From sequence record PQ416618.1: DNA of 64,000 nt; one strand, 5' to 3'. The notes under the pieces are model-generated. The model made no database searches, was not told the DNA's origin, and saw nothing but the letters and a program-made list of their open reading frames with translations. Made by a program: the position numbers and the translations under genes. The DNA comes from Escherichia phage vB_VIPECOMC06. Each line of letters starts with the position of its first letter. Position 1 is the first letter of the stretch. Below, piece by piece: positions 3,919 to 38,773 of this stretch.

Positions 3919-3927
3919 GGAAACATT

Positions 3928-4863
3928 ATGTACAATATCAAATGCTTGTCCCAAGAAGAACAGTTAGAAGCTTACGACCTGGTCAAATCAGGCAAATGGA
4001 CCCGTAAAGAAATTGCCGATTACTTCGACATTTCAACAGATACTCTTCGTAAGATTGTTAAGAATTTTAAAGCTGAAGAGAAAGCAGCTGAATTTGAAGA
4101 CGAAGAACAGGTCCCAGAAAATAATGAACCTATTATTACAGGTCATCGTCCAGAAATCGTATGGAACGCGTCATCTAAATTTATTTCAATCATTGAAGGA
4201 CGCGTAGCATACAATGCGACCCCATCAAGTCATGCAAATTTTGAAGAAATTAAAGCTAATTTGGTCGCAGGAAACCTTAGTAAAGCTGTCGAACTTATTA
4301 ACATCAAGAAAGCTATTAGTAAGTTTGTTGACGGTAATGTTGTTATTGAAGGTGGTAGTTTATTTTATCAAGGTATAGAGATTCGTTCTGGCCTGGTTAA
4401 TCGTATTATTGATTCTATGGAAAAAGGCGAAGACTTTAAATTCTATCTGCCATTCCTTGAAAACCTGTTAGAAAACCCAAGCGAAAAAGCTGTACAACGT
4501 TTATTCGACTTCTTGGTTGCAAATGATATTGAAATCACTGAAGATGGGCATTTCTATGCATGGAAAGTAGTTCGTAAAGACTATTTAGATTGCTATAGCG
4601 GCACATTTGATAACTCGCCTGGTAAAATTGTTTCAATGCCTCGTACTCGTGTTAACGATGATGATACACAAACTTGTTCCCGTGGTCTACATGTTTGTGC
4701 TAAATCATATATTCGTTACTTTGGTTCTAGCTCAGATAAAGTTGTTAAGGTTAAAGTTCATCCACGTGATGTTGTATCTATCCCAGTTGACTATGGTGAT
4801 GCTAAGATGCGTACTTGTCGTTATGAAGTAATTTCAGACGTTACTGAATTATTTGCAGAATAA
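3928..4863 (+). CDS. rIIB: rIIB protein
   Basis: 311 aa; MYNIKCL... start and conserved C-terminal block ...PRTRVNDDDTQTCSRGLHVC.KSYIR.FGSS match T4 rIIB. Confidence 0.92.
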   Translation: MYNIKCLSQEEQLEAYDLVKSGKWTRKEIADYFDISTDTLRKIVKNFKAEEKAAEFEDEEQVPENNEPIITGHRPEIVWNASSKFISIIEGRVAYNATPSSHANFEEIKANLVAGNLSKAVELINIKKAISKFVDGNVVIEGGSLFYQGIEIRSGLVNRIIDSMEKGEDFKFYLPFLENLLENPSEKAVQRLFDFLVANDIEITEDGHFYAWKVVRKDYLDCYSGTFDNSPGKIVSMPRTRVNDDDTQTCSRGLHVCAKSYIRYFGSSSDKVVKVKVHPRDVVSIPVDYGDAKMRTCRYEVISDVTELFAE

Positions 4864-4868
4864 TAATT

Positions 4869-4890
4869 GGGGACTTCGGTCCCCTTTTTT
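4869..4890 (+). terminator. intrinsic terminator after rIIB
   Basis: GGGGACTTCGGTCCCC hairpin with UUCG loop followed by TTTTTT. Confidence 0.8.
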
Positions 4891-4904
4891 CTTTAGGGGT
4901 AATT

Positions 4905-5192
4905 ATGATTCATCCATTTGACGTATCAGAATCCAAAATTGCTAATCTTCGTGGTCATCATAAGTGTAAATCAGTTTATTGTGCTAAATTGGTAAAACAT
5001 CCTGGTGATGCACACTACGGCTGGTTAGAATGCGACGAAGTTGTTATTGAAATTCCGCCTGTAGATGCAGAATATCTTGAAGAAGGTGACCGCATTTATT
5101 TTGGCGAACTACACATTAGAGGTATCTATGGTAAAGACGAACTTGGGACTGTTGAGACTGAAGAATCTTCCGACATTTATCCTGTCGAATGA
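4905..5192 (+). CDS. hypothetical protein (overlaps the denB start in another frame)
   Basis: 95-aa ORF with AGGGG Shine-Dalgarno 6 nt upstream; follows the rIIB terminator. Confidence 0.45.
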   Translation: MIHPFDVSESKIANLRGHHKCKSVYCAKLVKHPGDAHYGWLECDEVVIEIPPVDAEYLEEGDRIYFGELHIRGIYGKDELGTVETEESSDIYPVE

Positions 5193-5685
5193 GTTTTTGA
5201 CTAGTGAAATGAAGGTGAAGATTGCTGACACTGCTCGGTATTCCCTGAGCCAAAATCCTGGCCAAAACAAAGAAGATGTAGTTCGACGTTGTAAGGTTGC
5301 GGTCTTTGCAGAGTATGTAGTAGCAAATTGGCTAGACGGGTATGTTAATAAAGGTATTGAAGACGTAGAAGACCCGTACACGTATGCATGGGACGTGTTA
5401 GCCCATCCCAAGTATTGTGGAATTCGTGTAGAAGTCAAGACGCACCAGATAGATTCTAAATGGATTTCGGTTACCACAGGATACAGTGGTGATTATCCGG
5501 GTGGTAATGGAATCAATATAGGGCCCTTCTTGAACCATCGAGTCGCAGATTGCATTATTATATTAGATGTCAAAGAAACCTCACCTGACGTCTTCTCTTA
5601 TTCTATAAAGTTCGTGGGAGACCATGAAGACCTAAAGAAAATCGTCCGCAAGAGCAACTACAACGGGTGGTATCTTCAACTTTAA
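5128..5685 (+). CDS. denB: endonuclease IV (dC-specific ssDNA endonuclease), DenB-like
   Basis: ATG at 5128 with AGAGG SD gives 185 aa (T4 DenB length from memory) and places a Ser at residue 176, the residue reported as critical in T4 EndoIV; position downstream of rIIB fits. Confidence 0.5.
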   Translation: MVKTNLGLLRLKNLPTFILSNEFLTSEMKVKIADTARYSLSQNPGQNKEDVVRRCKVAVFAEYVVANWLDGYVNKGIEDVEDPYTYAWDVLAHPKYCGIRVEVKTHQIDSKWISVTTGYSGDYPGGNGINIGPFLNHRVADCIIILDVKETSPDVFSYSIKFVGDHEDLKKIVRKSNYNGWYLQL

Positions 5686-5696
5686 TTTCATAAAGT

Positions 5697-5730
5697 GTTT
5701 ACAACTAAGTAGGACTATGATATAGTAGTC
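5697..5730 (+). promoter_or_regulatory. T4-type early promoter with palindrome around -10
   Basis: GTTTACaactaagTAGGACTAtgaTATAGTAGTCCTAtc. Confidence 0.6.
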
Positions 5731-5752
5731 CTATCTAAAAGAGGATAACATC

Positions 5753-6016
5753 ATGAAATTTAAATTTTTCTACGCAAAACATAAAGTAACAGGCGAATTT
5801 GTTTCAATGTACAACACTGCAGATGACGAAGGGATGATTTATACCCATTTGGGACTATCTCATTGGGACTCGGACGTGCCTTATATGTCATCTGAAGCCG
5901 AAATAACTCGTCTGGTTAATGGACATATGAACGACCATTTTGGTGTTATTCTTTCTAAAGACCTTAAAGAGGTTATCAACAAAGGATATATGGAACTCGC
6001 GGAAGTTGAGATATGA
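5753..6016 (+). CDS. hypothetical early protein
   Basis: 87-aa ORF preceded by an early promoter and AGAGGA SD. Confidence 0.55.
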   Translation: MKFKFFYAKHKVTGEFVSMYNTADDEGMIYTHLGLSHWDSDVPYMSSEAEITRLVNGHMNDHFGVILSKDLKEVINKGYMELAEVEI

Positions 6017-6205
6017 GCTCTAAAACGTGGATCGGAATATGGCTGCTTAGTATCCCTATGATTTGTATAATATTTTCAATTGCATTGAGGTACTTATGAA
6101 AAATGCACTTATTGTACTAAGAACAATTTGCGATACAGGTTTTTACATCGCATGTTCGTTCACTGGAACATGGTTGGCTTTAACATATTTTAATGTAATT
6201 TAATT

Positions 6206-6243
6206 GTTTACAACAAGGTAGGATTATGGTATAGTAGTCCTAC
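6206..6243 (+). promoter_or_regulatory. T4-type early promoter with palindrome around -10
   Basis: GTTTACaacaagGTAGGAttatggTATAGTAGTCCTAC. Confidence 0.6.
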
Positions 6244-6263
6244 TGGAACATGAGGAACACAAA

Positions 6264-6464
6264 ATGGCTAAGCTTTTTAAAGATGTTGAAATTGGTGAAA
6301 AATTTGTTCTGAATAATGGTCAGCAGCTTATTCGTGTAGCTTCTATCGCCGGACAAACTCATAACTGTATCGCCCCAACGTGTTGGACTCGATTCTTTAT
6401 TGAAGATGACACTGAATGTTTAACTGTTGAAGAGCTTTTTGAACGTTCTGATATAGCCGAATAA
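6264..6464 (+). CDS. hypothetical early protein
   Basis: 66-aa ORF preceded by an early promoter and GAGGAA SD. Confidence 0.55.
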   Translation: MAKLFKDVEIGEKFVLNNGQQLIRVASIAGQTHNCIAPTCWTRFFIEDDTECLTVEELFERSDIAE

Positions 6465-6466
6465 AA

Positions 6467-6503
6467 TTGTACAAACTCTCGAGAGCAGAGTATAATGCTC
6501 TCA
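6467..6503 (+). promoter_or_regulatory. early promoter upstream of ndd (variant -35) with palindrome flanking TATAAT
   Basis: TTGTACaaactctcGAGAGCAgagTATAATGCTCTC. Confidence 0.55.
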
Positions 6504-6540
6504 TGGATTACAAAAACATTAATCAATTGAGGAAATTAGC

Positions 6541-6987
6541 ATGTCCAAATATTTAACTCGTAAAGACCTTCTGGCAGTTGGCGGTGAAGTTGTTGCAGTA
6601 GTTCGTAATGGCGAATACGGTTCTGAAGTTTCTAAAGAGTTTCGTTCTCGTGAAGGTTTTTACTTCTTTGTTAAAGGTTCATCTGATTGGCGTCAAGTAG
6701 CAGCACGATTCTTTGTAGGACGTCAACGTTCTAAACAAGGGTTGGATGCAATTCTTTCTCACATTCGTCAAGGCCGTTCGCAACTAGCCCGTACTATGGG
6801 CACTAACAATATTGAATATGATGTAATCTTTGTTGCAGCTAAGAACATGAAACCCCTGACTACTGGTTACGGTAAAGGACAATTGGCTCTGGCATTCACT
6901 CGCAATCATACATCAGAATATCAAACACTCACTGAAATGAACCGTCTTCTGGCAGATAATTTCAAATTCATTCTGCAGAGTTACTAA
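6541..6987 (+). CDS. ndd: nucleoid disruption protein Ndd
   Basis: 148 aa; FYVGNQRSKQG...LSHIRQ.RSQLART...[39 protein letters not shown] block matches T4 Ndd. Confidence 0.9.
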
Positions 6988-6994
6988 TTTATAC

Positions 6995-7026
6995 AGGCCT
7001 ATTAAGCTAGGCCTTTAATTTATTTT
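6995..7026 (+). terminator. putative terminator after ndd
   Basis: AGGCCT-attaagct-AGGCCT stem-loop followed by a T-rich run. Confidence 0.5.
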
Positions 7027-7039
7027 TGAGGTAATTAAA

Positions 7040-7189
7040 ATGGTAGCATGGATTATTGCATTGCTGTGTTGGTCGTTTTTATTCGTTAACACTTTAGTTA
7101 CAGGCGAAACAACAGTATTTCAACAGGCTGTGTCACAAGGTACCTTAGCGGTCTTAGCTCTTCTTAACGTATTAAAAGGCGAGCAATGA
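7040..7189 (+). CDS. small hydrophobic membrane peptide (49 aa)
   Basis: MVAWIIALLCWSFLFVNTLVTGETTVFQQAVSQGTLAVLALLNVLKGEQ; GAGGTAA SD upstream; below the 60-aa cutoff of the ORF track. Confidence 0.5.
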   Translation: MVAWIIALLCWSFLFVNTLVTGETTVFQQAVSQGTLAVLALLNVLKGEQ

Positions 7190-7326
7190 TTAAGAAAATC
7201 TTAGCAGGAGCCTTCGGGCTCTTGTTGTTGCTTACTGTTCTGTACTACGGTGTGATGTTTGGGCTAATCCAAGTAGTGCTTTTCATTTCGGATGTTATAA
7301 TGGTTATTCGTTCATTAGTATGGTGA
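7186..7326 (+). CDS. small hydrophobic membrane peptide (46 aa)
   Basis: MIKKILAGAFGLLLLLTVLYYGVMFGLIQVVLFISDVIMVIRSLVW; ATGA start/stop overlap with the previous peptide. Confidence 0.45.
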   Translation: MIKKILAGAFGLLLLLTVLYYGVMFGLIQVVLFISDVIMVIRSLVW

Positions 7327-7330
7327 AAAT

Positions 7331-8656
7331 ATGCAATTGAATTCTCGTAATCTAAAAAGTATTATTGATAACGAAGCCTTAGCATATGCGATGTACACCG
7401 TTGAAAACCGTGCAATCCCAAACATGATTGATGGATTTAAGCCGGTTCAACGTTTTGTGGTTCATCGTGCGTTAGATTTGGCTCGTGGTAATAAAGAAAA
7501 ATTTCATAAACTTGCGTCAATTGCAGGCGGTGTTGCAGATTTAGGTTATCATCATGGCGAATCTTCTGCACAAGATGCAGGTGCATTGATGGCTAACACA
7601 TGGAACAACAACTATCCACTGTTAGATGGCCAAGGCAACTTTGGTTCTCGAACAGTCCAAAAAGCTGCAGCATCTCGTTATATTTTTGCTCGTGTAAGTA
7701 AAAATTTCTATAACGTATATAAAGATACTGAATATGCTCCAGCTCATGAAGATAAAGAACACATTCCACCAAAATTCTATCTTCCTATTATTCCGACAGT
7801 TCTTTTGAATGGTGTCTCTGGTATTGCAACCGGTTACGCAACAAATATTCTGCCTCATAGTTTTAAAACAGTCAAAAAGGCTGTATTACAAGCTCTTCAA
7901 GGTAAAAATGTCACTAAGCCAAAAGTTGAATTCCCGGAATTCCGTGGTGAAGTACATGAAGTTGATGGGCGTTATGAGATTCACGGAACATATAAGTTCA
8001 CATCTCGCACTCAAATGCAGATAACTGAAATCCCATATAAATTCGACCGTGAAACGTATGTGAGTAAGGTTCTTGACCCGTTGGAAGACAAAGGTCTAAT
8101 CTCATGGGAAGATGATTGCGGTGAACACGGCTTTGGGTTTAAGGTGAAGTTCCGTAAAGAGTACTCGCTTCCTGATGATGAAGAGCTACGTCATGAAAAA
8201 ATCATGAAAGATTTTAGTCTCATCGAACGTCGTTCACAAAACATCACAGTGATTAATGAAAAGGGTAAATTAGCGGTCTATGATAACGTAGTGGACTTAA
8301 TCAAAGATTTTGTTGAAGTCCGTAAGACTTACGTTCAAAAACGTATTGACAACAAAATCCTTGAATCTGAAAAAGCATTTAAACTGGCTTTTGCTAAGGC
8401 ACACTTCATCAAAAAAGTTATTACAGGTGAAATTGTGATTCAGGGCAAGACTCGTAAAGCTTTGACTGAAGAGCTAGCACAAATCGAAATGTACAAAGAA
8501 CATGTCGATAAACTGGTAGGCCTTAACATCTTCCATATCACTTCCGACGAAGCACGTAAACTGGCAGAAGAAGCTAAAGCTAAGAAAGAAGAAAATGAGT
8601 ATTGGAAGTCTACCGATGTTGTGACAGAGTACACTAAAGACTTGGAGGCACTTTGA
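7331..8656 (+). CDS. 52: DNA topoisomerase II medium subunit (GyrA-like)
   Basis: 441 aa; MQLN.R.LKSIIDNEALAYAMYTVENRAIPNMIDGFKPVQRF... matches T4 gp52. Confidence 0.95.
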   Translation: MQLNSRNLKSIIDNEALAYAMYTVENRAIPNMIDGFKPVQRFVVHRALDLARGNKEKFHKLASIAGGVADLGYHHGESSAQDAGALMANTWNNNYPLLDGQGNFGSRTVQKAAASRYIFARVSKNFYNVYKDTEYAPAHEDKEHIPPKFYLPIIPTVLLNGVSGIATGYATNILPHSFKTVKKAVLQALQGKNVTKPKVEFPEFRGEVHEVDGRYEIHGTYKFTSRTQMQITEIPYKFDRETYVSKVLDPLEDKGLISWEDDCGEHGFGFKVKFRKEYSLPDDEELRHEKIMKDFSLIERRSQNITVINEKGKLAVYDNVVDLIKDFVEVRKTYVQKRIDNKILESEKAFKLAFAKAHFIKKVITGEIVIQGKTRKALTEELAQIEMYKEHVDKLVGLNIFHITSDEARKLAEEAKAKKEENEYWKSTDVVTEYTKDLEAL

Positions 8657-8732
8657 GTGCCCTAGCCTTAGGATTTCTCGGTGCAATAGCTGCACTAGTG
8701 ATTTGGCTGTATCGGTTGGACAAACATGATTA

Positions 8733-8752
8733 GGGAGCTTCGGCTCCCTTTT
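8733..8752 (+). terminator. intrinsic terminator after gene 52
   Basis: GGGAGCTTCGGCTCCC hairpin followed by TTTT. Confidence 0.8.
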
Positions 8753-8773
8753 GTGCATTTTTCTCACAAAACA

Positions 8774-8802
8774 GTTTACATGTGCTTCAAACATGATATT
8801 AT
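8774..8802 (+). promoter_or_regulatory. T4-type early promoter upstream of motA
   Basis: GTTTAC + 17 nt + TATTAT. Confidence 0.6.
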
Positions 8803-8841
8803 AGACCTATCAAAACAAAACAACCAAATTGGAGAAATAAA

Positions 8842-9474
8842 ATGTCTAAAGTTACTTACATCATCAAAGCTTCTGAAAACGCTCTGAATGAAAAAACTGC
8901 TGCAATAATGGTTTATATCATTAAGAACAACTTCACCACTGCTGCCAATGTCCGTGAAGCTCTGGAAGCGGAATACAATGCATCAGTTGTTAACTCTAAC
9001 ATTGGTGTATTGATTAAGAAAGGTTTAGTCGAAAAATCCGGTGATGGACTTATAGCAACAGGCGAAGCAATGGATATTATCCAAAAAGCTGCAGACCTCT
9101 TTGCCCAAGAAAATGCTCCAGAACTTCTTCAGAAACGTAACACTAGAAAAGCACGTGGAGTTACTCCTGAAATGCATGAATTAGCAAACTTTGTTTTTGA
9201 AAATATTAAAGATAAAGTTGAAGTTAAAGAAATTGGTGAAAACCGTAGTAACTTGGAAGTTCGATTTGCAAAACGAGTTCTAGGTATTCGTCAGATCGAA
9301 ATTCGTCGAGATGGTTGTCTTAGAATATTTGCATACAACATGTCAGAAACTGAATCAAAACTGTTTACTTCTCTTGAAAATGATGTTAAAATTAAGATCG
9401 GTGGTAAATATACTTACATTGACTTCCCTAATGTATCCAAAGAAATCATTACCCTTGTAACTAACGTACTGTGA
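8842..9474 (+). CDS. motA: middle transcription activator MotA
   Basis: 210 aa; MSKVTYIIKAS...NSNIGVLIKKGLVEKSGDGLI.TGEA matches T4 MotA. Confidence 0.9.
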   Translation: MSKVTYIIKASENALNEKTAAIMVYIIKNNFTTAANVREALEAEYNASVVNSNIGVLIKKGLVEKSGDGLIATGEAMDIIQKAADLFAQENAPELLQKRNTRKARGVTPEMHELANFVFENIKDKVEVKEIGENRSNLEVRFAKRVLGIRQIEIRRDGCLRIFAYNMSETESKLFTSLENDVKIKIGGKYTYIDFPNVSKEIITLVTNVL

Positions 9475-9484
9475 GGAATACATA

Positions 9485-9829
9485 ATGAATAAGCTGAATA
9501 TTATTAACGAACTTCGTAAATGTGCAGAACCTACTCAGGAAGGATGGGATATTTGGTACCACGGGGCTTATTTAGGGACAATTGTAAAGATTAAAGCTGG
9601 GTTATATTTAATTATTCGCGAAAATTCTGAATTCCCTAATGGAGTAGCTCCTGGCGGTATACGTAAAAACTACATGGCAGCGATCAGTTCATTTGTTGAT
9701 GCAGCTTACGAAATCTATAAAGAAGATTATAAAGAATATCAGCAGTCACAACCGGTTATTCGTTCGATTGGTGTAAATAAACAAGCACAAAAATCTATTT
9801 GGCAACGTATTAAGGAATGGTTTAAATGA
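9485..9829 (+). CDS. hypothetical early protein
   Basis: 114-aa ORF, tightly packed after motA. Confidence 0.55.
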
Positions 9830-10287
9830 AATCATTTAAAGAACGTTTAGAGCTATTAGATTTGGCCTTGTCTCGTGAGACTCCTGAAAGTCTAGCAGAA
9901 AAATTCCAGTCCTATGGTTATAATTATTCTGCTGATGATATAATGAATGAAGTTCCTGAAATCTGTTGGCAAACGTGTTATTGGAATAATGACCAAAAAG
10001 TTCAACGTGTTATAGTATGTGCAGCTAATAGGTTTAAATTGAAGAGTGGTGGAACTCTGGTTATTCCTGGAGTTCGTCATTACTCTAAAGATATGGCTGA
10101 AGTACTTGATATAGTTGGTCCTCAATTAGTCTCTCAACAAGTTTGTGGTGACGATCAAGGCTTTATCGACCAATACTCTAATTATTGGACTCGTGAAGAA
10201 GCAATGATTATTGCAACGTATGCTGGACAGGTACGTATTGAACGTGGCGGAAGCGAGAAAGAACTTTATTCAGAGGACCTTTATTAA
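9826..10287 (+). CDS. hypothetical early protein
   Basis: 153-aa ORF, ATGA overlap with upstream gene. Confidence 0.55.
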
Positions 10288-10568
10288 TGAATATTAAACA
10301 ACTCCAGAAAGATGCTATTGAATCACGTATCCAAGATATCAAACGTCTTAATCATATGATGGAAGAAAACTATGGTATGTATGCTAATCAGCCTGGTTGG
10401 GACGCTTTAGACCATCCTTATTTGGTCAATTTATGTAAAGGTGATACGTTAGCAATTATTCGTGATGGGCTAAAACCTTTCTTGCGTGATATGTATATTA
10501 AAATGAACGAAGAAATTATTAGCTCGTTGCAATATCAATTAAGGAAATTAGATGATGAGAATAATTGA
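10287..10568 (+). CDS. hypothetical early protein
   Basis: 93-aa ORF, start overlaps upstream stop. Confidence 0.5.
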   Translation: MNIKQLQKDAIESRIQDIKRLNHMMEENYGMYANQPGWDALDHPYLVNLCKGDTLAIIRDGLKPFLRDMYIKMNEEIISSLQYQLRKLDDENN

Positions 10569-10779
10569 TTCTAAAGCAGATTATTTTAATTCTGTTAATG
10601 ATAAGAATAAAGCTTTAATTCGCCACTTTATTACTGAGATGGGATACACTGACTCTAAAGATTTGAAAGAGCACATTATCGAATGTTCTGTGGCTAAAAA
10701 GTTTTCTTTTACCGATAAATGTTTAAACGAGGTTATAAAGCATTATGAACAATCTTGTAGCAAAACACGATTTCAATAA
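10552..10779 (+). CDS. hypothetical early protein
   Basis: 75-aa ORF overlapping the upstream gene. Confidence 0.45.
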   Translation: MMRIIDSKADYFNSVNDKNKALIRHFITEMGYTDSKDLKEHIIECSVAKKFSFTDKCLNEVIKHYEQSCSKTRFQ

Positions 10780-10853
10780 GGCTTCTGTTCATAAGGACAA
10801 GAAGAAATCAGAACTTCAATCTAAACGCAAACAAAAACATAAGGGTAAAGACT

Positions 10854-11153
10854 ATGCTTACTAAAATCAAAGAAAATCCTGCCACTGAACTTGTTATTCG
10901 TTGTGAAGAACTTGCAGAGCTTTATCAGGTTAACCGAGAAGTGTATCGTAGTGTTATCATAGATATGGAAGATGAAGTCTGCTCTCGACTTGAGTTTAGT
11001 GTTGATTTCAGTCATTTTAAACCTGGTGAAATCACTATTGTATTTGGTTCTGACTACACCGAAGAACAGGCTCTTAATGCCCTAGAATATGAAATATCAT
11101 TCTTCGACATACAGGACTACATTGATAGTTATAAGGAACAATATGAGTCATAA
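10854..11153 (+). CDS. strongly acidic small protein, possible DNA mimic (Arn-like anti-restriction candidate)
   Basis: 99 aa with roughly 23 Asp/Glu against 8 Lys/Arg; sits just upstream of asiA where T4 has arn; identity not verified. Confidence 0.4.
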   Translation: MLTKIKENPATELVIRCEELAELYQVNREVYRSVIIDMEDEVCSRLEFSVDFSHFKPGEITIVFGSDYTEEQALNALEYEISFFDIQDYIDSYKEQYES

Positions 11154-11304
11154 TCTTCAGAACGTAGTAGAGGCCGAACGTGAGCGTGAGGCTTTAGTCT
11201 ATAATGAACTATTAGCTCAGTTCTTAGCCTTACACTCGTATGAACAGGAAGACTATACCAATTACGTTAAAAGCGTAGAAAAAGCCGTTTACAATCAACA
11301 CTGA
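11143..11304 (+). CDS. hypothetical small protein (53 aa)
   Basis: ATG at 11143 overlapping the upstream stop; MSHNLQNVVEAERE... Confidence 0.4.
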   Translation: MSHNLQNVVEAEREREALVYNELLAQFLALHSYEQEDYTNYVKSVEKAVYNQH

Positions 11305-11350
11305 TAATGGTACTATATCCATATCAACTAAGTGGAATGAATAAAACGTT

Positions 11351-11623
11351 ATGAATAAAGACATTGAAATCGTACGTGAAATTATTACTATTGCTTCTAT
11401 TTTGATTAAATTCTCTAGGGAAGATATTGTTGAAGACCGAGCAAGTTTCATCGGATTCTTGAATGAGATTGGAATTAAAAAAGATGGTCGGCAGCTAAAT
11501 CAGAATTCGTTCAGAAAACTAATTACAAATTTAACTGCCGAAGAAAAGAAAACACTGATTAGTGAATTCAACGAAGGTTTTGAAAATATTTATCGTCATT
11601 TAGCGATGTATTCTAACAACTAA
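11351..11623 (+). CDS. asiA: anti-sigma70 factor AsiA
   Basis: 90 aa; MNK.I..VREIIT.ASILIKFSREDIVE.RA.FI.FLNEIG...NQNSFRK...L..E.KKTLI.EFNEGFE matches T4 AsiA. Confidence 0.92.
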   Translation: MNKDIEIVREIITIASILIKFSREDIVEDRASFIGFLNEIGIKKDGRQLNQNSFRKLITNLTAEEKKTLISEFNEGFENIYRHLAMYSNN

Positions 11624-12283
11624 TTATTTGGCCCTTCCTAGTATTCGGATCGCTTGGTTGCATATAGCCGCTAAGCGATCTTCCTCAAGTATATTACTCC
11701 CCTTATACCAATACATCGTCACAGTTCCGGCATAGATGTTATCCAAATTAAAGTATGGACAACTATACATATAAGAAAGTTCAGCAGTCTTAGATTTTGT
11801 AGGCAAAAATGCAAATTCTGATTTAGATGAGAAATGACGGCCACTTAAATGAATTATATATTCATTGGCCGTTTTATCCACCGGGAATCCGCCAAGGGAC
11901 TTTTCAGAAATTGTGCTAGGTAGTTTGCCTTCATAAGCTATAAGGTCGACGAAATAATTTAAGTTTTTAGGTCTGAAAGAATACACAGCACTAAAATCTG
12001 CACCAGATGAGATATGAACTATTTGCAGTTGTTCTAGAGCCGCAGATTCAAAACGTAAAGCTCGTTCTTTTTGGATTATTTCAGTATAAGTATCATACTT
12101 AGCTCTTACGTAATAATCCAGCAAAATACTTCCTTTGTACCATATTAGTGCCATTAGGAACAAAAGAATAATTACCGCTACTCGTGACATTAAAACCTTT
12201 CCAGTAGCGTTATCTTTGAAAATACGATCTAGCAACCCAAATAGAATATCACTAGGCGAAGATGATACTTTTGGTGTTGCCAT
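11624..12283 (-). CDS. t: holin (lysis inhibition sensor) T
   Basis: 219 aa; ...SPSDILFG.LDR.FKDNATGKVL.SRVAV...YSFRPKNLNYFVD.IAYEGKLPSTISEKSLGG.PVDKT matches T4 holin. Confidence 0.93.
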   Translation of the reverse strand: MATPKVSSSPSDILFGLLDRIFKDNATGKVLMSRVAVIILLFLMALIWYKGSILLDYYVRAKYDTYTEIIQKERALRFESAALEQLQIVHISSGADFSAVYSFRPKNLNYFVDLIAYEGKLPSTISEKSLGGFPVDKTANEYIIHLSGRHFSSKSEFAFLPTKSKTAELSYMYSCPYFNLDNIYAGTVTMYWYKGSNILEEDRLAAICNQAIRILGRAK

Positions 12284-12292
12284 AATACCTCC

Positions 12293-12844
12293 TTACTTAA
12301 AGATATTTATAATCGCTTTGACAATAGATTTGTTTTCAAGGTCAGGGAATTTGGGGAATTCACCGCCAAGATGTTCATGTTTTTCTAAAAGGGCAAAGAA
12401 TTTTTTGAGCTCTTTAAATTTTCGTTTTTCTTCTCTATTAGCAACCTCTGCGTCAATAAGAGAACTTAAAACACTGAATAATTTATAGAGTTCATGAATT
12501 TTCTTATCACGTTGAACTACGCGTTTATATGCTTCATCTTCCTTCCACCCGTCGTCGGTCCAAATGTCAAATTCGCCAGGTTCTTCTGTAGTAACATTTT
12601 GAAGAGCCCCTGGAGTGTCAATAACAATTTTTTGCTTATCATAAGTCCATACTGTTTTTCCGCGATGGTCTTCAACATAAACCCATTCTTGCTCGCGTTC
12701 GTCAAATATAACAGCATAGCCTTCTTTATGGTCTAAAGGTTTTTTTGGTGTCGAATGAGCCGGAAATCCTACGCCTTTTAATGGTTTATAATTTTCTTCT
12801 TTGTAAAATTCTTTAGTGTCAAAATAATAGTGATAGAGTTTCAT
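12293..12844 (-). CDS. 38: gp38 distal long tail fibre assembly chaperone (T4-type)
   Basis: 183 aa; MK.YHYYFDTKEFYKEENYKP...GEFDIWTDDGWKEDE...FALLEKHEHLGGEFP matches T4 gp38. Confidence 0.9.
   Translation of the reverse strand: MKLYHYYFDTKEFYKEENYKPLKGVGFPAHSTPKKPLDHKEGYAVIFDEREQEWVYVEDHRGKTVWTYDKQKIVIDTPGALQNVTTEEPGEFDIWTDDGWKEDEAYKRVVQRDKKIHELYKLFSVLSSLIDAEVANREEKRKFKELKKFFALLEKHEHLGGEFPKFPDLENKSIVKAIINIFK
12304..12311 (-). promoter_or_regulatory. late promoter for holin t
   Basis: TATAAATA on - strand about 20 nt upstream of the t ATG, inside the 3' end of gene 38. Confidence 0.6.
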
Positions 12845-23060: not shown

Positions 23061-23376
23061 TATTAAACCGGTTGATGAGGCCGGTTTATCTGAACAAGAA
23101 TTAGCGGTAAAACACGATAAAGATGATATCGCTAAATTGCTTGACCGACAAGAAAACGGATTCATTATCGAATCCATGGTTGAACAATTTGGTATGTCTT
23201 ATTTAGAAGCAACAACTGCTTTCTTGGAAGAAAATTCTATTCCAGAAACACAATTTGCTAAATTTATTCCTACAGGAATTGTTGAAAAAATTACAAGCGA
23301 AGCAATTGATGAAAACATGCTTCGCCCATCAGTTGCTCGTGGTGAAAAAACTAATACGTTAGATTTCTTATTATGA
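23038..23376 (+). CDS. 33: late transcription co-activator gp33
   Basis: 112 aa; MTQFSL.DI.PVDE.GLSE.EL...LLDRQENGFIIE.MVE.FGMSYLEATTAFLEENSIPETQFAKFIP matches T4 gp33. Confidence 0.93.
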   Translation: MTQFSLSDIKPVDEAGLSEQELAVKHDKDDIAKLLDRQENGFIIESMVEQFGMSYLEATTAFLEENSIPETQFAKFIPTGIVEKITSEAIDENMLRPSVARGEKTNTLDFLL

Positions 23377-24056
23377 AATACGTTGTGTATAAAACTACCA
23401 ATAAAATAAATGGTAAAATTTATATAGGCGTACACAAAAAACATAAAGAGAAAGATTGGTATATTGGGTCTGGCCGCGCTATATTAGCGGCCAAAGCTAA
23501 ATACGGACTAAAAAATTTTTATACTGAAGTTCTTTATGAATATGATAATGACAAGGACGCCTATAAAAAAGAAGCAGAATTGGTTAATGAAGATTTTGTT
23601 TTGCGAACTGATACTTATAACCTGGTTCCAGGTGGTAAAGGTGGCCCTGGTAAAAAACAAAGTGATGAAGCTAAAAGGGCTATTTCACTTTCTAAAATAG
23701 GGAAACCTAGATCTGAAGAGACTAAGGCTAAAGTATCTAAAACCAGATTAGAAAGAAAAATACCATCACCTAATAAGGGTAAGAAACTATCTGAAGCTCA
23801 TAAATTAGCTTTGAGTAAAGTCCGAAAAGGGCGAAAAACGAATAAGCCGATGCCTGATTCAACCAAAGAAGCTCTTAGAATAGCAAATTCAAAGCCGCAT
23901 TCTAAAGAAAGAACTATTAAAAAACAAAAACCTATAATTATTGATGGTATAAAATACTCATCATGTACAGAAGTTTCGGATGTTTTTAATATTTCTGCAT
24001 CTCTAGTTACGTATAGACTTAAATCTTCAAAATGGCCTGGATGGAACTATGATTAA
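23373..24056 (+). CDS. GIY-YIG family homing-endonuclease-like protein (Seg-like), free-standing
   Basis: 227 aa; N-terminal YKTTNKINGKIYIGV (YIG element) plus a Lys/Arg-rich C-terminal DNA-binding-like region; ATGA overlap with gp33 stop. Confidence 0.65.
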   Translation: MKYVVYKTTNKINGKIYIGVHKKHKEKDWYIGSGRAILAAKAKYGLKNFYTEVLYEYDNDKDAYKKEAELVNEDFVLRTDTYNLVPGGKGGPGKKQSDEAKRAISLSKIGKPRSEETKAKVSKTRLERKIPSPNKGKKLSEAHKLALSKVRKGRKTNKPMPDSTKEALRIANSKPHSKERTIKKQKPIIIDGIKYSSCTEVSDVFNISASLVTYRLKSSKWPGWNYD

Positions 24057-34868: not shown

Positions 34869-36102
<1,234 letters not shown>

Positions 36103-36103
<1 letters not shown>

Positions 36104-36784: not shown

Positions 36785-36818
36785 GTTTACAACATGGTGG
36801 AGTTGTGATACTATAACT
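36785..36818 (+). promoter_or_regulatory. early promoter driving the operon that includes the DAHP-synthase-like gene
   Basis: GTTTACaacatggtgGAGTTgtgaTACTATAACTC. Confidence 0.55.
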
Positions 36819-36842: not shown

Positions 36843-37079
36843 ATGCTAAGTGAAAACCCAATTACAGTACACGAATTTCAGATTAAAGTAAAAGAATTTG
36901 CTCAAGCACTCATCAATAAAGTGTCTGAACGTTTCCAAGATGCAACATTACGAGTTATTCAAGAATCTCCACGTTCTTTTCTCATAATCGTTAATCCTAA
37001 AGATGGTGACCAAATTACTAATCTTAAATTAGGCAGTGATGGTCTTGTTGAAGCAACTCGAGTATATGGAACACTATAA
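36843..37079 (+). CDS. hypothetical small protein
   Basis: 78-aa ORF after an early promoter, GAGGAAA SD. Confidence 0.5.
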   Translation: MLSENPITVHEFQIKVKEFAQALINKVSERFQDATLRVIQESPRSFLIIVNPKDGDQITNLKLGSDGLVEATRVYGTL

Positions 37080-37199
37080 TTAGAGCTATCTCATTACTAT
37101 CGAGAATGGTCATAAATCTGAGCACTACCAACTTAGCCTGTCTAATCCGGTTAAAGGTGTTGTTGAATCAGAATCTGTTTATATCTCCTAAGGATTGTT

Positions 37200-38192
37200 A
37201 TGTTACCTGTCATCAGAAAACTTATTTCTCCAAAAGAACTGGCTGAGATTATTCCTTTGTCGGAAGCTTACGCATCACAAGTGGCTTCTCATCGCGAACA
37301 AGTTAATTCGATTATGAACGGTGAAGACCCACGCAAACTTATTGTTGTAGGTCCTTGTTCAATTCATGACCCTATTGCTGCTGTTGAATACGGCAAACGT
37401 CTGGCTGAACTTCAAACTCGTCTTCCTAATGTTCTGTTAGTGATGCGCGTTTATTTTGAAAAGCCTCGAACTACCGTAGGTTGGAAAGGTCTTGTAAATG
37501 ATCCATATCTTGACGGAAGTTTTGATATGAACCACGGTCTTATAGTTGCACGAACATTGTGTCGTAAACTTCTACGCATGGGACTTCCATTAGCAACTGA
37601 AGTATTAGACCCATTCACGATTAAGTATCTTTCTGGTATTTTCTCATGGGTTGCTATTGGCGCCCGTACGACTGAAAGTCAGACACATCGTGAAATTGCT
37701 TCAGGTCTACCGATGTGCGTAGGCTTCAAGAACGCAACCAATGGTTCTATTAAAGTAGCTACAGACGCGATGTATAGTGCCGCCTGGCCTCATCGGTATA
37801 TGGGTATGGACGTCGATGGTACTGTAGGCATTGTTGAAGCTGAAGGTAATCAGAATACGCATATCGTATTGCGTGGCGGGACTAACGGCCCGAACTATCA
37901 TTCTTCTGATATTCAAGAAGCTTCTAACAAAGCAAGTGCATTAGGTCTGAATCATTATGTAATGGTTGACTGTAGCCATGCAAACGCTGATGGGTATTAT
38001 AGCAATCAAATTGGTATTGGTAAAAATTTAGCAGCTAATGATTTGGTCAAAGGAATTATGATAGAATCATTCCTACATGAAGGAAATCAAAAAATTTCTG
38101 ATAATATGTCCTATGGCGTTTCCGTTACCGATGCGTGCATCAGTTGGGAACAAACTAAAGAGCTGTTAACTTATATTAATAAGGTTCAATAA
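37200..38192 (+). CDS. class I DAHP synthase homologue (3-deoxy-D-arabino-heptulosonate-7-phosphate synthase, AroG/AroF-like)
   Basis: 330 aa; conserved blocks VVGPCSIHD, VMRVYFEKPRTTVGWKGL, AIGARTTESQTHRE, VDCSHANA, MIESFLHEGNQ, VSVTDACISWEQT align with E. coli AroG active-site motifs; AAGGA SD. Confidence 0.85.
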   Translation: MLPVIRKLISPKELAEIIPLSEAYASQVASHREQVNSIMNGEDPRKLIVVGPCSIHDPIAAVEYGKRLAELQTRLPNVLLVMRVYFEKPRTTVGWKGLVNDPYLDGSFDMNHGLIVARTLCRKLLRMGLPLATEVLDPFTIKYLSGIFSWVAIGARTTESQTHREIASGLPMCVGFKNATNGSIKVATDAMYSAAWPHRYMGMDVDGTVGIVEAEGNQNTHIVLRGGTNGPNYHSSDIQEASNKASALGLNHYVMVDCSHANADGYYSNQIGIGKNLAANDLVKGIMIESFLHEGNQKISDNMSYGVSVTDACISWEQTKELLTYINKVQ

Positions 38193-38773
38193 TGAAAGCT
38201 AGCACATATCTTCAAATTGCTTATTTGATTTCTCAAGAATCAAAATGTTGTTCATGGAAAGTTGGTGCCGTCATTGAAAAAGATGGACGCATTATCTCTA
38301 CTGGATATAATGGCTCACCAGCAGGTGGCGTTAACTGTTGTGAACATGCATCCGAAAATGGTTGGTTGAAGAATAAACCAAGCCCGGTCATCGTTGCTGG
38401 ACATAAAGAAGGCACTACGGCATTTGGACGGGCAGATAATTTTGTTTTGGCTAAAGAACATCGGGCCGCTCATAGTGCATGGTCTGCTAATAATGAAATC
38501 CATGCGGAATTGAACGCAATTTTGTTTGCAGCTCGTAAAGGTAATTCTATTGAAGGTGCTACGTTATATACGACGCTTTCTCCGTGTCCTGATTGCACTA
38601 AAGCTATTACGCAGTCAGGTATTAAAAAGGTTGTATACGCAGAATTATATGACAGATCTCCTGAAAATTGGGCAGACATTCTAAAACAAGCCGGTATTGA
38701 AGTAATTCAGTACTCTCGTAATAATCTTCGTTCTCTGAATTGGGAACAAATCCGAAACTTTTGTGGTGAATAA
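38192..38773 (+). CDS. cd: dCMP deaminase
   Basis: 193 aa; MKAST.LQIAYL.SQESKCCSWKVGAVIEK.GRIISTGYNGSPAGGVNCC...HAELNAILFAAR.G.SIEGAT.Y.TLSPCPDC.KAI matches T4 Cd. Confidence 0.95.
   Translation: MKASTYLQIAYLISQESKCCSWKVGAVIEKDGRIISTGYNGSPAGGVNCCEHASENGWLKNKPSPVIVAGHKEGTTAFGRADNFVLAKEHRAAHSAWSANNEIHAELNAILFAARKGNSIEGATLYTTLSPCPDCTKAITQSGIKKVVYAELYDRSPENWADILKQAGIEVIQYSRNNLRSLNWEQIRNFCGE

Follow-up and report, generated by a model that had tools for sequence, protein, structure and literature searches.

The gene for a DAHP synthase (DAHPS) that lies directly upstream of cd in this phage genome raises the question of what a virus gains from carrying the committed-step enzyme of a pathway in which all the other enzymes are those of the host. 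The window analyzed here (the whole stretch of DNA, 64,000 nucleotides) belongs to a Mosigvirus and is about 99% identical to the phages ST0, HX01 and HY126. The gene call itself is not new, as over 200 phage records already annotate DAHPS, which is also catalogued as PHROG 5045. These records give the name only, and an analysis of the regulation, origin or distribution of the annotated phage enzymes was not found in the searched literature. Also, no experimental study of any phage DAHPS was found when the literature was searched under several names. The sole remark found on a role as AMG concerns the copy of phage KLB31, which has been proposed as an aromatic amino-acid AMG (PMC11845039). The features of the locus are listed in Table 1.

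Table 1. Features of the DAHPS locus, with positions in the window and the basis of each assignment.
Feature	Position	Strand	Basis
pseT, polynucleotide kinase/phosphatase; anchors the conserved order pseT...DAHPS...cd on its upstream side	35201..36103	+	PF25109, PF13671, synteny
Sigma-70-type promoter-like site (TTTACA, 17 nt, TACTAT, upstream TG) in the cd.3/cd.2 gap	36786..36814	+	scan and sequence
cd.2 homologue (DUF7320), upstream neighbour, same presumed transcription unit	36843..37079	+	PF24005 E=1.5e-35; cd.2-like in PhAPEC2 annotation
Imperfect 13-bp direct repeat at the borders of the DAHPS cassette, left copy, ATAATTAGAGCTA	37076..37088	+	RB69 alignment
Shine-Dalgarno-like AAGGA, 5 nt upstream of the DAHPS ATG	37190..37194	+	direct sequence reading
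DAHP synthase gene (type I-alpha, 330 aa, stop codon included)	37200..38192	+	ORF with ATG start
GPCSIHD block; C53, metal-binding Cys (AroG C61)	37350..37370	+	alignment; unchanged throughout the phage and E. coli sequences
KPRTT block (K88, P89, R90, T91); PEP and E4P-phosphate binding motif distinguishing DAHPS	37461..37475	+	invariant
DPFTIKYLSGIF (aa 137-148), remodelled wall of the presumed former inhibitor pocket; I141, K142, G146 for AroG P150, Q151, D155	37608..37643	+	alignment
IASGLP (aa 166-171); I166, P171 for AroG L175, S180	37695..37712	+	alignment
beta6a/beta6b hairpin (aa 198-214), type I-alpha insertion, retained; Y200 for AroG F209, G202 as AroF	37791..37841	+	model and residue mapping
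SHANA block; H260, metal-binding His (AroG H268)	37974..37988	+	alignment
E289 codon, metal-binding Glu (AroG E302), block MIES	38064..38066	+	residue mapping
TDACI block; D311, metal-binding Asp (AroG D326)	38127..38141	+	alignment
Right copy of the repeat, ATAATGAAAGCTA; holds the DAHPS stop and cd start	38189..38201	+	RB69 alignment
cd, dCMP deaminase; its position would allow translational coupling to DAHPS	38192..38773	+	PF00383 E=1.5e-26, phrog_174

Judged from its sequence, the open reading frame can be regarded as a genuine and intact type I-alpha DAHP synthase. A sequence-only reading of the window had already described it as a complete class I enzyme, and the profile HMM search bears this out, with DAHP synthase models matched well above their cutoffs. 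The 330-aa protein matches Pfam DAHP_synth_1 (PF00793; E=2.1e-74, 250 bits against a cutoff of 25.5) and the NCBIfam models TIGR00034 aroFGH (426 bits, cutoff 173) and NF009395 (454 bits, cutoff 343), and its residues 1-330 align with positions 8-337 of the 341 positions of the PHROG 5045 profile (E=1.5e-181). Among the NCBIfam matches (E<0.01) only DAHPS models are present and a KDO8PS model is absent. The intact KPRT motif sets the protein apart from KDO8P synthase (type I-beta, KdsA). The protein had been called AroG-like and shorter at both ends. The shortening is confirmed, as the 330 aa compare with 350 aa in AroG, 356 aa in AroF and 348 aa in AroH, a difference of 18-26 aa that is distributed over both ends and three small internal deletions. 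The likeness, by contrast, is greatest with AroF, which is the closest E. coli isozyme (51% identity, against 47% for AroG) and also provides the best PDB sequence match (6AGM, E=1e-104). The AroG-specific model NF006723 (362 bits, cutoff 568) and the AroH-specific model NF009396 (384 bits, cutoff 463) both remain below their NCBIfam cutoffs. The GC content of the gene is 0.408 and that of the whole window is 0.378. Over all open reading frames of the window, Phe, Tyr and Trp together make up 9.7% of the residues; T4 has the same AT-rich bias, and this figure is not taken as evidence.

The six motif blocks quoted earlier are all located in the translation: GPCSIHD (aa 51-57), KPRTT (aa 88-92), GARTTESQ (aa 154-161), SHANA (aa 259-263), HEGNQ (aa 293-297) and TDACI (aa 310-314). 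The alignment retains every metal and PEP ligand. The metal ligands C53, H260, E289 and D311 are unchanged throughout the phage homologues, and the ligands of PEP and E4P (R83, K88-P89-R90-T91, R156, K177 and R225) are all invariant. The Cys, His and Asp had been assigned correctly from the motifs, but the metal-binding Glu had been sought in the HEGNQ block (E294) and is instead E289. The AF2 model of the enzyme has a pLDDT of 93.4 and superimposes on the solved DAH7PS structures from Neisseria meningitidis and E. coli (Foldseek; 4HSO, 5CKS and 1QR7) with TM scores of 0.94-0.96 and an rmsd of 1.4 A. In this model, a (beta/alpha)8 barrel is preceded by N-terminal helices, the extension lacking its first ~8 residues, and the strands of the beta6a/beta6b hairpin are assigned by DSSP to residues 198-203 and 209-214. 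With these residues in place, the phage DAHPS is predicted to convert PEP and E4P to DAHP and Pi in a divalent metal-dependent reaction.

The dCMP deaminase gene that had been noticed next to DAHPS is cd, which follows directly downstream. The stop codon of DAHPS overlaps the ATG of cd as TAATG, a position that suggests translational coupling from DAHPS to cd. Upstream, the promoter-like site in the cd.3/cd.2 gap occupies the same intergenic position as the mapped T4 early promoter Pe133295. Promoters and terminators were scanned for, and their total numbers did not exceed those of shuffled controls; the 15 promoter-like sites compare with 16.1 expected in shuffled sequence and are as a whole not above chance. 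From its position, the cd.3/cd.2 site is a likely early promoter for cd.2-DAHPS-cd, and DAHPS would probably be transcribed early together with cd.2 and cd. Phage RB69 lacks a DAHPS segment of 1.1 kb here, and in the alignment the two edges of this segment fall on one and the same stretch of 13 bases in RB69.

The pseT-cd locus carries DAHPS in no fewer than five genera (Mosigvirus, Marfavirus, Winklervirus, Bragavirus and Kanagawavirus), and metagenomic T4-like contigs share this arrangement. Together, the phage enzymes make up a T-even clade of their own, for which the best bacterial match has at most about 55% identity. This low identity, together with a phage-like GC3 of 0.293 and the synteny, rules out a recent capture from the host, in agreement with what had been concluded from codon usage. 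A tree of the flanking markers pseT and cd indicates one ancestral presence of DAHPS with losses later, and the gene has been inherited vertically. The gene is absent from T4, Dhakavirus and RB69; for canonical T4 the absence had been noted earlier, and the slot in T4 holds cd.1. These absences are most simply read as losses, and RB69 and T4 show that the gene is dispensable. Between genera, dN/dS is 0.14-0.26, a rough range with saturated between-genus dS, and the within-genus values, which rest on fewer than 15 substitutions, are uninformative; the between-genus ratios indicate purifying selection on the phage DAHPS. The tblastn distributions of DAHPS, RB69 gp55 (API) and RB69 gp52 (AfhE-like) were compared in a sample of phages. 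DAHPS was found in 212 phage records (including 25 of Klebsiella, 7 of Proteus and 6 of Serratia phages), with Tequatrovirus absent among the matches listed, and the AfhE-like gene was found in 373 records (Klebsiella 25, Proteus 7, Serratia 9 and Acinetobacter 57). The DAHPS of Aeromonas phage HJ05 keeps the catalytic residues and has A/H/P/P at the inhibitor contacts; it is regarded as an independent acquisition. The faecal 'Bacteriophage sp.' contig MT837466 was left out, as its divergent DAHPS is of uncertain, possibly bacterial, origin.

The phage clade differs from the bacterial enzymes mainly at the site where the end products bind. Nine columns in the whole protein separate the two groups; seven of these are in or adjoining the inhibitor pocket and none is in the active site. 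In AroG, the main chain of the inhibitor is bound by Q151/Q152 and S180/S181, and a D155-K127 salt bridge steadies the inhibitor site. Feedback resistance is complete in the P150L variant and is also seen with S180F, L175D and F209A (PMC9529685). Also in yeast, Aro4 with residues 1-20 deleted or with Q166E or S195A is described as unregulatable (PMC9733642, citing Hartmann 2003). In the phage clade, the P150 position is Ile in 19/19 sequences (Pro in 38/40 bacterial sequences), the Q151 position is Lys in 18/19 (Gln in 40/40), the D155 position is Gly in 18/19 (Asp in 40/40) and the S180 position is Pro in 19/19 (Ser in 39/40). In addition, the N-terminal arm is absent from all 19 phage-clade sequences, with only 1-2 residues ahead of the equivalent of AroG K11, against 8-45 in bacteria. 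The missing segment corresponds to AroG residues 3-10, which we take to include the Phe-contacting residues D6, D7 and I10. Thus, the inhibitor pocket of AroG, AroF and AroH, as defined by the arm and the equivalents of P150, Q151, D155 and S180, is not present in the phage DAHPS. Since the arm is absent and the inhibitor-contact residues are replaced, the phage DAHPS is predicted not to be switched off by Phe, Tyr or Trp. Feedback insensitivity had been suggested earlier from the N-terminal truncation; the truncation is real, and the replaced contacts in the pocket strengthen the case and make the suggestion plausible. The pocket residues D137, G169, L170 and V212 and the AroF-type G202 are kept, and given these, residual or altered feedback inhibition could persist.

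The pocket is also strongly conserved inside the phage clade (0.888 against a protein average of 0.640, p about 0.0006 versus random column sets), and the replacements are fixed at an overall sequence identity of only about 57%. A locked-open scaffold would account for this conservation, and a pocket that has kept the ability to bind some ligand would do so no less well. The remodelled pocket could thus be a new allosteric site through which the enzyme is still regulated by another ligand, for instance an anionic, phage-relevant metabolite drawn by the fixed Lys142; entry into the shikimate pathway, or the drain on PEP and E4P, would in this way be tied to the state of infection. Both the conservation and the fixation speak for such a site, and the hairpin that forms the pocket is retained. 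However, no member has the arm that closes the pocket, the conservation is equally explicable by the dimer interface or by packing that locks the active state, and the gene context points to no candidate ligand. We regard a new allosteric site as unlikely. It is also quite unlikely that the enzyme is an ordinary isozyme under feedback inhibition, sensitive to Tyr as AroF is, and simply raises the amount of DAHPS. AroF is indeed the closest relative in both identity and PDB match, and the Tyr-type Gly at AroG position 211 is kept along with the four other pocket residues named above, but the main-chain contacts of the inhibitor are replaced (Gln by Lys and Ser by Pro), the Ile at P150 resembles the feedback-resistant P150L, and the arm is absent.

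The reading that we consider probable is that of a competent DAHPS from a lineage found only in T-even phages, with an inhibitor site that has been dismantled and rebuilt, which serves as an unregulated input to the shikimate pathway. The arm, which closes the pocket of the partner subunit, is missing, and the holders of the inhibitor main chain (Q151 and S180), the hotspot of feedback resistance (P150) and the salt-bridge residue (D155) are fixed as Lys, Pro, Ile and Gly. Infected cells would then gain an unregulated fourth DAHPS activity, and carbon in the form of PEP and E4P would be forced into the shikimate enzymes of the host regardless of the aromatic pools. The most likely benefit would be that Phe, Tyr, Trp and chorismate-derived cofactors continue to be supplied during the shutdown of host expression. 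Any benefit is conditional, as RB69, T4 and Dhakavirus manage without the gene. The downstream shikimate enzymes of the host might also cap the gain in flux.

The same chemistry could have been selected for a reshaping of central carbon metabolism. In phages whose ribulose-5-phosphate (Ru5P) is diverted to UDP-arabinose for arabinosylated 5-hydroxycytosine DNA, DAHPS would act as an irreversible sink for E4P (and PEP) and would either pull transketolase flux to pentose phosphates or reduce E4P. HY126 and Bas47, which have arabinosylated DNA, both carry DAHPS, and Ru5P has been proposed as the start of the arabinose pathway (PMC13326640). In addition, T-even carriers of DAHPS appear nested within the carriers of arabinose-nucleotide genes; T4 is without DAHPS, and Tequatrovirus is absent among the DAHPS matches listed. 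However, the DNA of RB69 is arabinosylated without DAHPS, the sugar genes also occur without a T-even-type DAHPS in Dhakavirus and in about 57 Acinetobacter phage records, and by the flanking-marker tree the co-occurrence counts as about one evolutionary event. A drain on E4P would also waste carbon that the non-oxidative branch would return to pentoses. A selected role as carbon sink is very unlikely. The co-occurrence of DAHPS and arabinosylated DNA was rejected as evidence for a functional coupling on account of RB69, Dhakavirus, the Acinetobacter phages without DAHPS and the single ancestral presence. Taken jointly, the two possibilities that the T-even clade has turned its pocket into a different conserved regulatory site (with fixed Lys, Pro, Ile, Gly and Tyr) or that the actual role of the enzyme is that of an irreversible PEP/E4P sink that rebalances pentose phosphates in phages with arabinosylated 5-hydroxycytosine keep a small but real probability. 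If one of them is true, the gene would represent a virus-evolved re-wiring of the shikimate entry valve and not a borrowed housekeeping enzyme.

The further suggestion, made from the sequence at first sight, of an aldolase that uses arabinose-5-phosphate or another sugar phosphate to make an unusual sugar acid, with which DNA or the surface would be modified, is extremely improbable: the family includes KDO8P synthase and the phage makes arabinose-5-phosphate (API gene), but the KPRT motif and every E4P/PEP ligand are invariant, the NCBIfam matches are to DAHPS models only, the use of arabinose-5-phosphate would compete with UDP-arabinose synthesis, and the role is not supported because RB69 has its DNA modification, arabinosylation, without this gene. 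Altered substrate specificity was rejected, as no clade-specific column (0/9) falls within the active site.

With the deregulated DAHPS, a virus would carry the committed-step enzyme with its end-product brake apparently removed. If confirmed, this would show clearly that a phage can override the metabolic homeostasis of its host at an allosteric control point, and the bioproduction of aromatic compounds would gain an I-alpha DAHPS scaffold whose feedback resistance has evolved in nature. RB69 and the JS09-type phages would form a natural presence/absence pair for gauging what the gene is worth to the phage.

Several known systems resemble the phage enzyme. The annotated phage DAHPS genes (among them ST0 gp164, HX01, JS09, Bas47_0048, Marfa_230, CHI14 gp196 and KLB31) are the same gene at the same locus; the proteins of ST0 and AV113 are 100% identical to that of the window, and there is no structural difference from the annotated phage enzymes. 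E. coli AroF, AroG and AroH (6AGM, 1KFL and 1QR7) are 44-51% identical to the phage enzyme along the whole length and have the same fold (TM score about 0.95); the ligands of the metal, PEP and E4P are identical, and the beta6a/beta6b insertion is shared. Compared with AroG, the phage enzyme lacks eight N-terminal residues (AroG 3-10) and has I, K, G, P and Y for P150, Q151, D155, S180 and F209. PhzC-type DAH7PS (type IIB) of Pseudomonas aeruginosa is described as supplying shikimate flux outside normal homeostasis (PMC6435475) and is similar in this respect, but it is a bacterial enzyme of the type II structural class and is linked to a gene cluster for a secondary metabolite. A parallel in regulation is provided by the feedback-resistant variants AroG P150L, S180F and D146N and yeast Aro4 with residues 1-20 deleted, Q166E or S195A. 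The same positions are altered in the phage clade, and a deregulated enzyme is therefore predicted. The phage substitutions (Ile, Lys, Pro and Gly) differ from the laboratory ones, and unlike the engineered or selected variants, the phage clade naturally combines several changes that have been fixed over a long divergence.

The DAHP synthase (DAHPS) gene lying between cd.2 and cd encodes an enzyme of type I-alpha. Pfam DAHP_synth_1 covers residues 36-323 (E=2.1e-74), and the NCBIfam aroFGH equivalog TIGR00034 and subfamily model NF009395 are matched at 426 bits (cutoff 173) and 454 bits (cutoff 343), respectively, with scores under the cutoffs of both the AroG-specific and the AroH-specific models. 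The closest solved structure is the Tyr-sensitive AroF of E. coli (6AGM, E=1e-104, query residues 8-327 on AroF 17-344), which is also the nearest E. coli isozyme at 51% identity (AroG only 47%). An AlphaFold2 model (mean pLDDT 93.4, pTM 0.92; input alignment of 58 sequences) superposes on the DAH7PS structures of N. meningitidis and E. coli AroG with TM 0.94-0.96 and an rmsd of about 1.4 A. The phage family corresponds to PHROG 5045 (E=1.5e-181), classed under auxiliary metabolic genes. The identity proposed in the sequence-only reading is thus confirmed by the Pfam and NCBIfam profiles, the AroF match and the model superposition, and all six motif blocks that it quoted are found in the translation.

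Nine phage homologues were aligned with AroG, AroF and AroH. The metal ligands C53, H260, E289 and D311 (AroG C61, H268, E302 and D326) are invariant across this alignment, as are the PEP and E4P ligands R83, K88-P89-R90-T91, R156, K177 and R225. The Glu of HEGNQ had been taken for a metal ligand; residue mapping corrects this to E289, in MIES. No KDO8P-synthase model is among the NCBIfam matches, and no sequence feature speaks against ordinary DAHPS chemistry.

When all protein columns were scanned, only nine were conserved within both the phage and the bacterial group yet different between them, and seven of these (AroG 150, 151, 155, 156, 175, 180 and 209) are in or adjoin the inhibitor pocket. 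All 19 phage-clade sequences have Ile for Pro at AroG P150, Pro for Ser at S180, Ile for the bacterial Met (Leu in AroG) at L175 and Tyr for Phe at F209; Lys replaces Gln at Q151 (18/19, Arg in one) and Gly replaces Asp at D155 (18/19). The Pro, Gln, Asp and Ser at positions 150, 151, 155 and 180 are kept in 38-40 of the 40 bacterial sequences. In addition, every phage-clade member has only 1-2 residues before the equivalent of AroG K11, compared with 8-45 in the bacterial sequences, and AroG residues 3-10 are missing. In AroG, P150L gives complete feedback resistance, and S180F, L175D and F209A/S are also resistant; Q151/Q152 and S180/S181 contact the main chain of bound Phe or Tyr, and the D155-K127 salt bridge stabilises the inhibitor site (PMC9529685). 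Yeast Aro4 is described as unregulatable after deletion of its first 20 residues or with Q166E or S195A (PMC9733642, citing Hartmann et al. 2003). With a 15-residue offset, Aro4 Q166 and S195 are the equivalents of AroG Q151 and S180. Because of the pocket replacements, the missing arm and the literature on these positions, we infer that the phage DAHPS would escape canonical inhibition by aromatic amino acids. The feedback insensitivity that had been suggested earlier thereby gains support from both the N-terminal truncation and the pocket.

The pocket of the phage clade is not decaying: conservation of its columns is 0.888, compared with a mean of 0.640 for random sets of the same size, and only 0.06% of 10,000 such sets reach 0.888. 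This conservation fits a pocket whose residues pack and lock the active conformation, and it is equally compatible with a pocket that now binds some other ligand. A distant DAHPS (38% identity, annotated as hypothetical) is encoded by Aeromonas phage HJ05, an unrelated phage of 79 kb; it has all catalytic residues intact and A/H/P/P at four inhibitor-contact positions. This enzyme was acquired independently, and the parallel is no more than suggestive.

A homologue search of 5.8 billion proteins gave two groups of matches, one of phage proteins (57-98% identity to the phage DAHPS, 319-343 aa) and one of bacterial enzymes (at most 55% identity, 341-388 aa). All 19 phage sequences form one clade in a single neighbour-joining tree without bootstrap. 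The gene lies between pseT and cd in Mosigvirus, Marfavirus, Winklervirus, Bragavirus and Kanagawavirus, and likewise on a metagenomic T4-like contig (protein cluster P0020); the basal clade member, cluster P0022, is found on T4-like phage contigs without a recognisable cd beside it. Between genera, the Nei-Gojobori dN/dS is 0.14-0.26, with dS saturated. The GC content (0.408) and GC3 (0.293) are inside the range of neighbouring genes (window GC 0.378).

The slot is occupied by cd.1 in T4 and by other small ORFs in Dhakavirus QL01. In RB69, of the same genus as the window, cd.2 directly abuts cd, and the 1.1 kb that the window has in addition is exactly the DAHPS gene and its leader. This cassette is bracketed by an imperfect 13-bp direct repeat containing the stop/start overlap, and the repeat occurs just once in RB69, where cd.2 meets cd. 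The pattern points to recombination at this short repeat, by which the cassette was deleted or inserted. In a tree of concatenated pseT and cd (200 bootstraps), the DAHPS-negative T4 and Dhakavirus pair (100% support) and RB69 are nested inside DAHPS-positive lineages, with only 72.5% support for the branch setting this pair beside Mosigvirus. Most parsimoniously, the gene was acquired once in the distant past, descended vertically and was lost at least twice, in RB69 plausibly via recombination between the short repeats. Therefore, the gene appears beneficial enough for long retention, yet dispensable. As a separate observation, RB69 cd, annotated as only 169 aa, runs into a stop codon close to its C-terminal end (KPSWY*SNS) when translated in the frame of the window protein. 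Either a true frameshift or an error in sequencing could account for this; such errors are on record for other RB69 genes (PMC13326640).

Arabinosylated cytosine is present in the DNA of Mosigviruses, RB69, HY126 and Bas47 among them; recent work describes it as arabinosyl-5-hydroxycytosine, and ribulose-5-P has been proposed as the starting point of its sugar (PMC6024577, PMC13326640). Judging from record counts, T-even phages with DAHPS seem to be a subset of those carrying sugar-nucleotide genes (API, AfhE-like). By host name in the record, DAHPS and AfhE-like genes number 25 and 25 for Klebsiella, 7 and 7 for Proteus, 6 and 9 for Serratia, 4 and 9 for Enterobacter, and 4 (one checked being a 13-kb contig) and 57 for Acinetobacter. 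This nesting would accord with a role as E4P sink or in pentose-phosphate metabolism, but such a role has a low probability, since RB69 is modified without DAHPS, Dhakavirus and Acinetobacter phages also occur without it, and the co-occurrence amounts to about one evolutionary event on the pseT and cd tree. Synthesis of a modification precursor is rejected on the RB69 evidence, and the earlier idea of a sugar acid for DNA modification is not borne out. The gene is not mentioned in the modification papers PMC6024577, PMC8056088 and PMC13326640. In Marfavirus and Dhakavirus, the AfhE-like gene is divergent (41-43% identity) and the API gene seems to be missing, so that these phages may make a different sugar donor.

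The start of cd on the DAHPS stop and the ribosome-binding and promoter-like sites listed in the table make it likely that cd.2, DAHPS and cd are transcribed together at early or middle times, with translational coupling to cd. The homologous cd.3/cd.2 gap of T4 has the mapped early promoter Pe133295. The window encodes a MotA homologue (the ST0 gp122 equivalent), and the middle-promoter pattern TGCTTNA, 11-13 nt, TANNNT occurs 13 times compared with 4.0 expected (0/100 shuffles reach 13), 12 of them on the + strand. The coding status of two short leader ORFs is doubtful.

Coordinates of features in the window and in related phages
Feature	Position	Strand	Remarks
DAHPS gene	37200-38192	+	ATG-initiated ORF, 330 aa
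dCMP deaminase (cd)	38192-38773	+	193 aa; starts on last base of DAHPS stop, TAATG
Shine-Dalgarno-like AAGGA			5 nt upstream of DAHPS ATG
Sigma-70-type site	36786-36814		TTTACA, 17 nt, TACTAT, upstream TG; 60-nt cd.3/cd.2 gap
Direct repeat ATAAT(T/G)A(G/A)AGCTA	37076-37088 and 38189-38201		brackets 1.1-kb DAHPS cassette
Segment extra to RB69	~37089-38188
Leader ORF, 41 aa	37066-37191	+	annotated in ST0 and Bas47; overlaps cd.2 end, stops just before DAHPS RBS
Open ORF, 46 aa	37106-37246		different from the 41-aa ORF
MotA-box-like patterns nearest to DAHPS	35796; 39074		inside pseT; before gene 31
Other MotA-box-like patterns (examples)	19522; 22666; 54722; 59873
Homing endonuclease, Seg-like GIY-YIG	23373-24056	+	227 aa; between gp33 and gp59 homologues
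HJ05 DAHPS (OQ594355.1)	3899-5062 of locus L014
RB69 cd (NC_004928.1)	5671-6252 of locus L009
RB69 arabinose-nucleotide genes (API, AfhE-like)	6048-12599 of locus L002

The window belongs to Mosigvirus (Straboviridae, Tevenvirinae) and is colinear over its entire length with ST0, about 58.7 to 123 kb; the 2 kb around the gene are 99.3% identical to Escherichia phages ST0, HX01, pEK20 and SSE1, and 99.2% to HY126. This colinearity is interrupted by the homing endonuclease, which ST0 lacks; it matches the I-TevI DNA-binding domain (E=6e-11) and, weakly, NUMOD3 and SegE. ARAGORN found no tRNA genes in window 1-64000, and therefore the T4-type tRNA cluster lies outside it. By tblastn, 212 of 50,697 phage records are positive for DAHPS, 139 of them at ≥95% identity (Mosigvirus), and most of the 212 already bear the names 'phospho-2-dehydro-3-deoxyheptonate aldolase', 'DAHP synthase class 1' or 'aroF'. 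The 98%-identical representative of protein cluster P0001 carries the NCBI label 3-deoxy-7-phosphoheptulonate synthase [Escherichia coli]; its contig of 170,875 bp is almost certainly a Mosigvirus genome deposited under its host's name. As a gene call, the phage DAHPS is already known and annotated. The searched literature held no experimental study of any phage DAHPS, and its sole mention is one sentence proposing the copy of KLB31 (Kanagawavirus) as an aromatic amino-acid AMG (PMC11845039). No description of the remodelled, conserved allosteric pocket turned up in the literature searched; this pocket is the only part of the finding that merits follow-up.

DAHPS chemistry combined with deregulation is probably the best explanation, and the main interpretation of the sequence-only reading agrees with the profiles, the intact ligands and the remodelled pocket. 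The phage enzyme would act as an unregulated fourth DAHPS in the infected cell, keeping carbon flowing from PEP and E4P to the host shikimate enzymes during host transcription shut-off, when the aromatic pools would otherwise restrain the host isozymes AroF, AroG and AroH. The nearest analogues in principle are the laboratory fbr alleles and the aromatic-insensitive DAH7PS PhzC of Pseudomonas, in which the allosteric sites were lost by omission of structural elements (PMC6435475).
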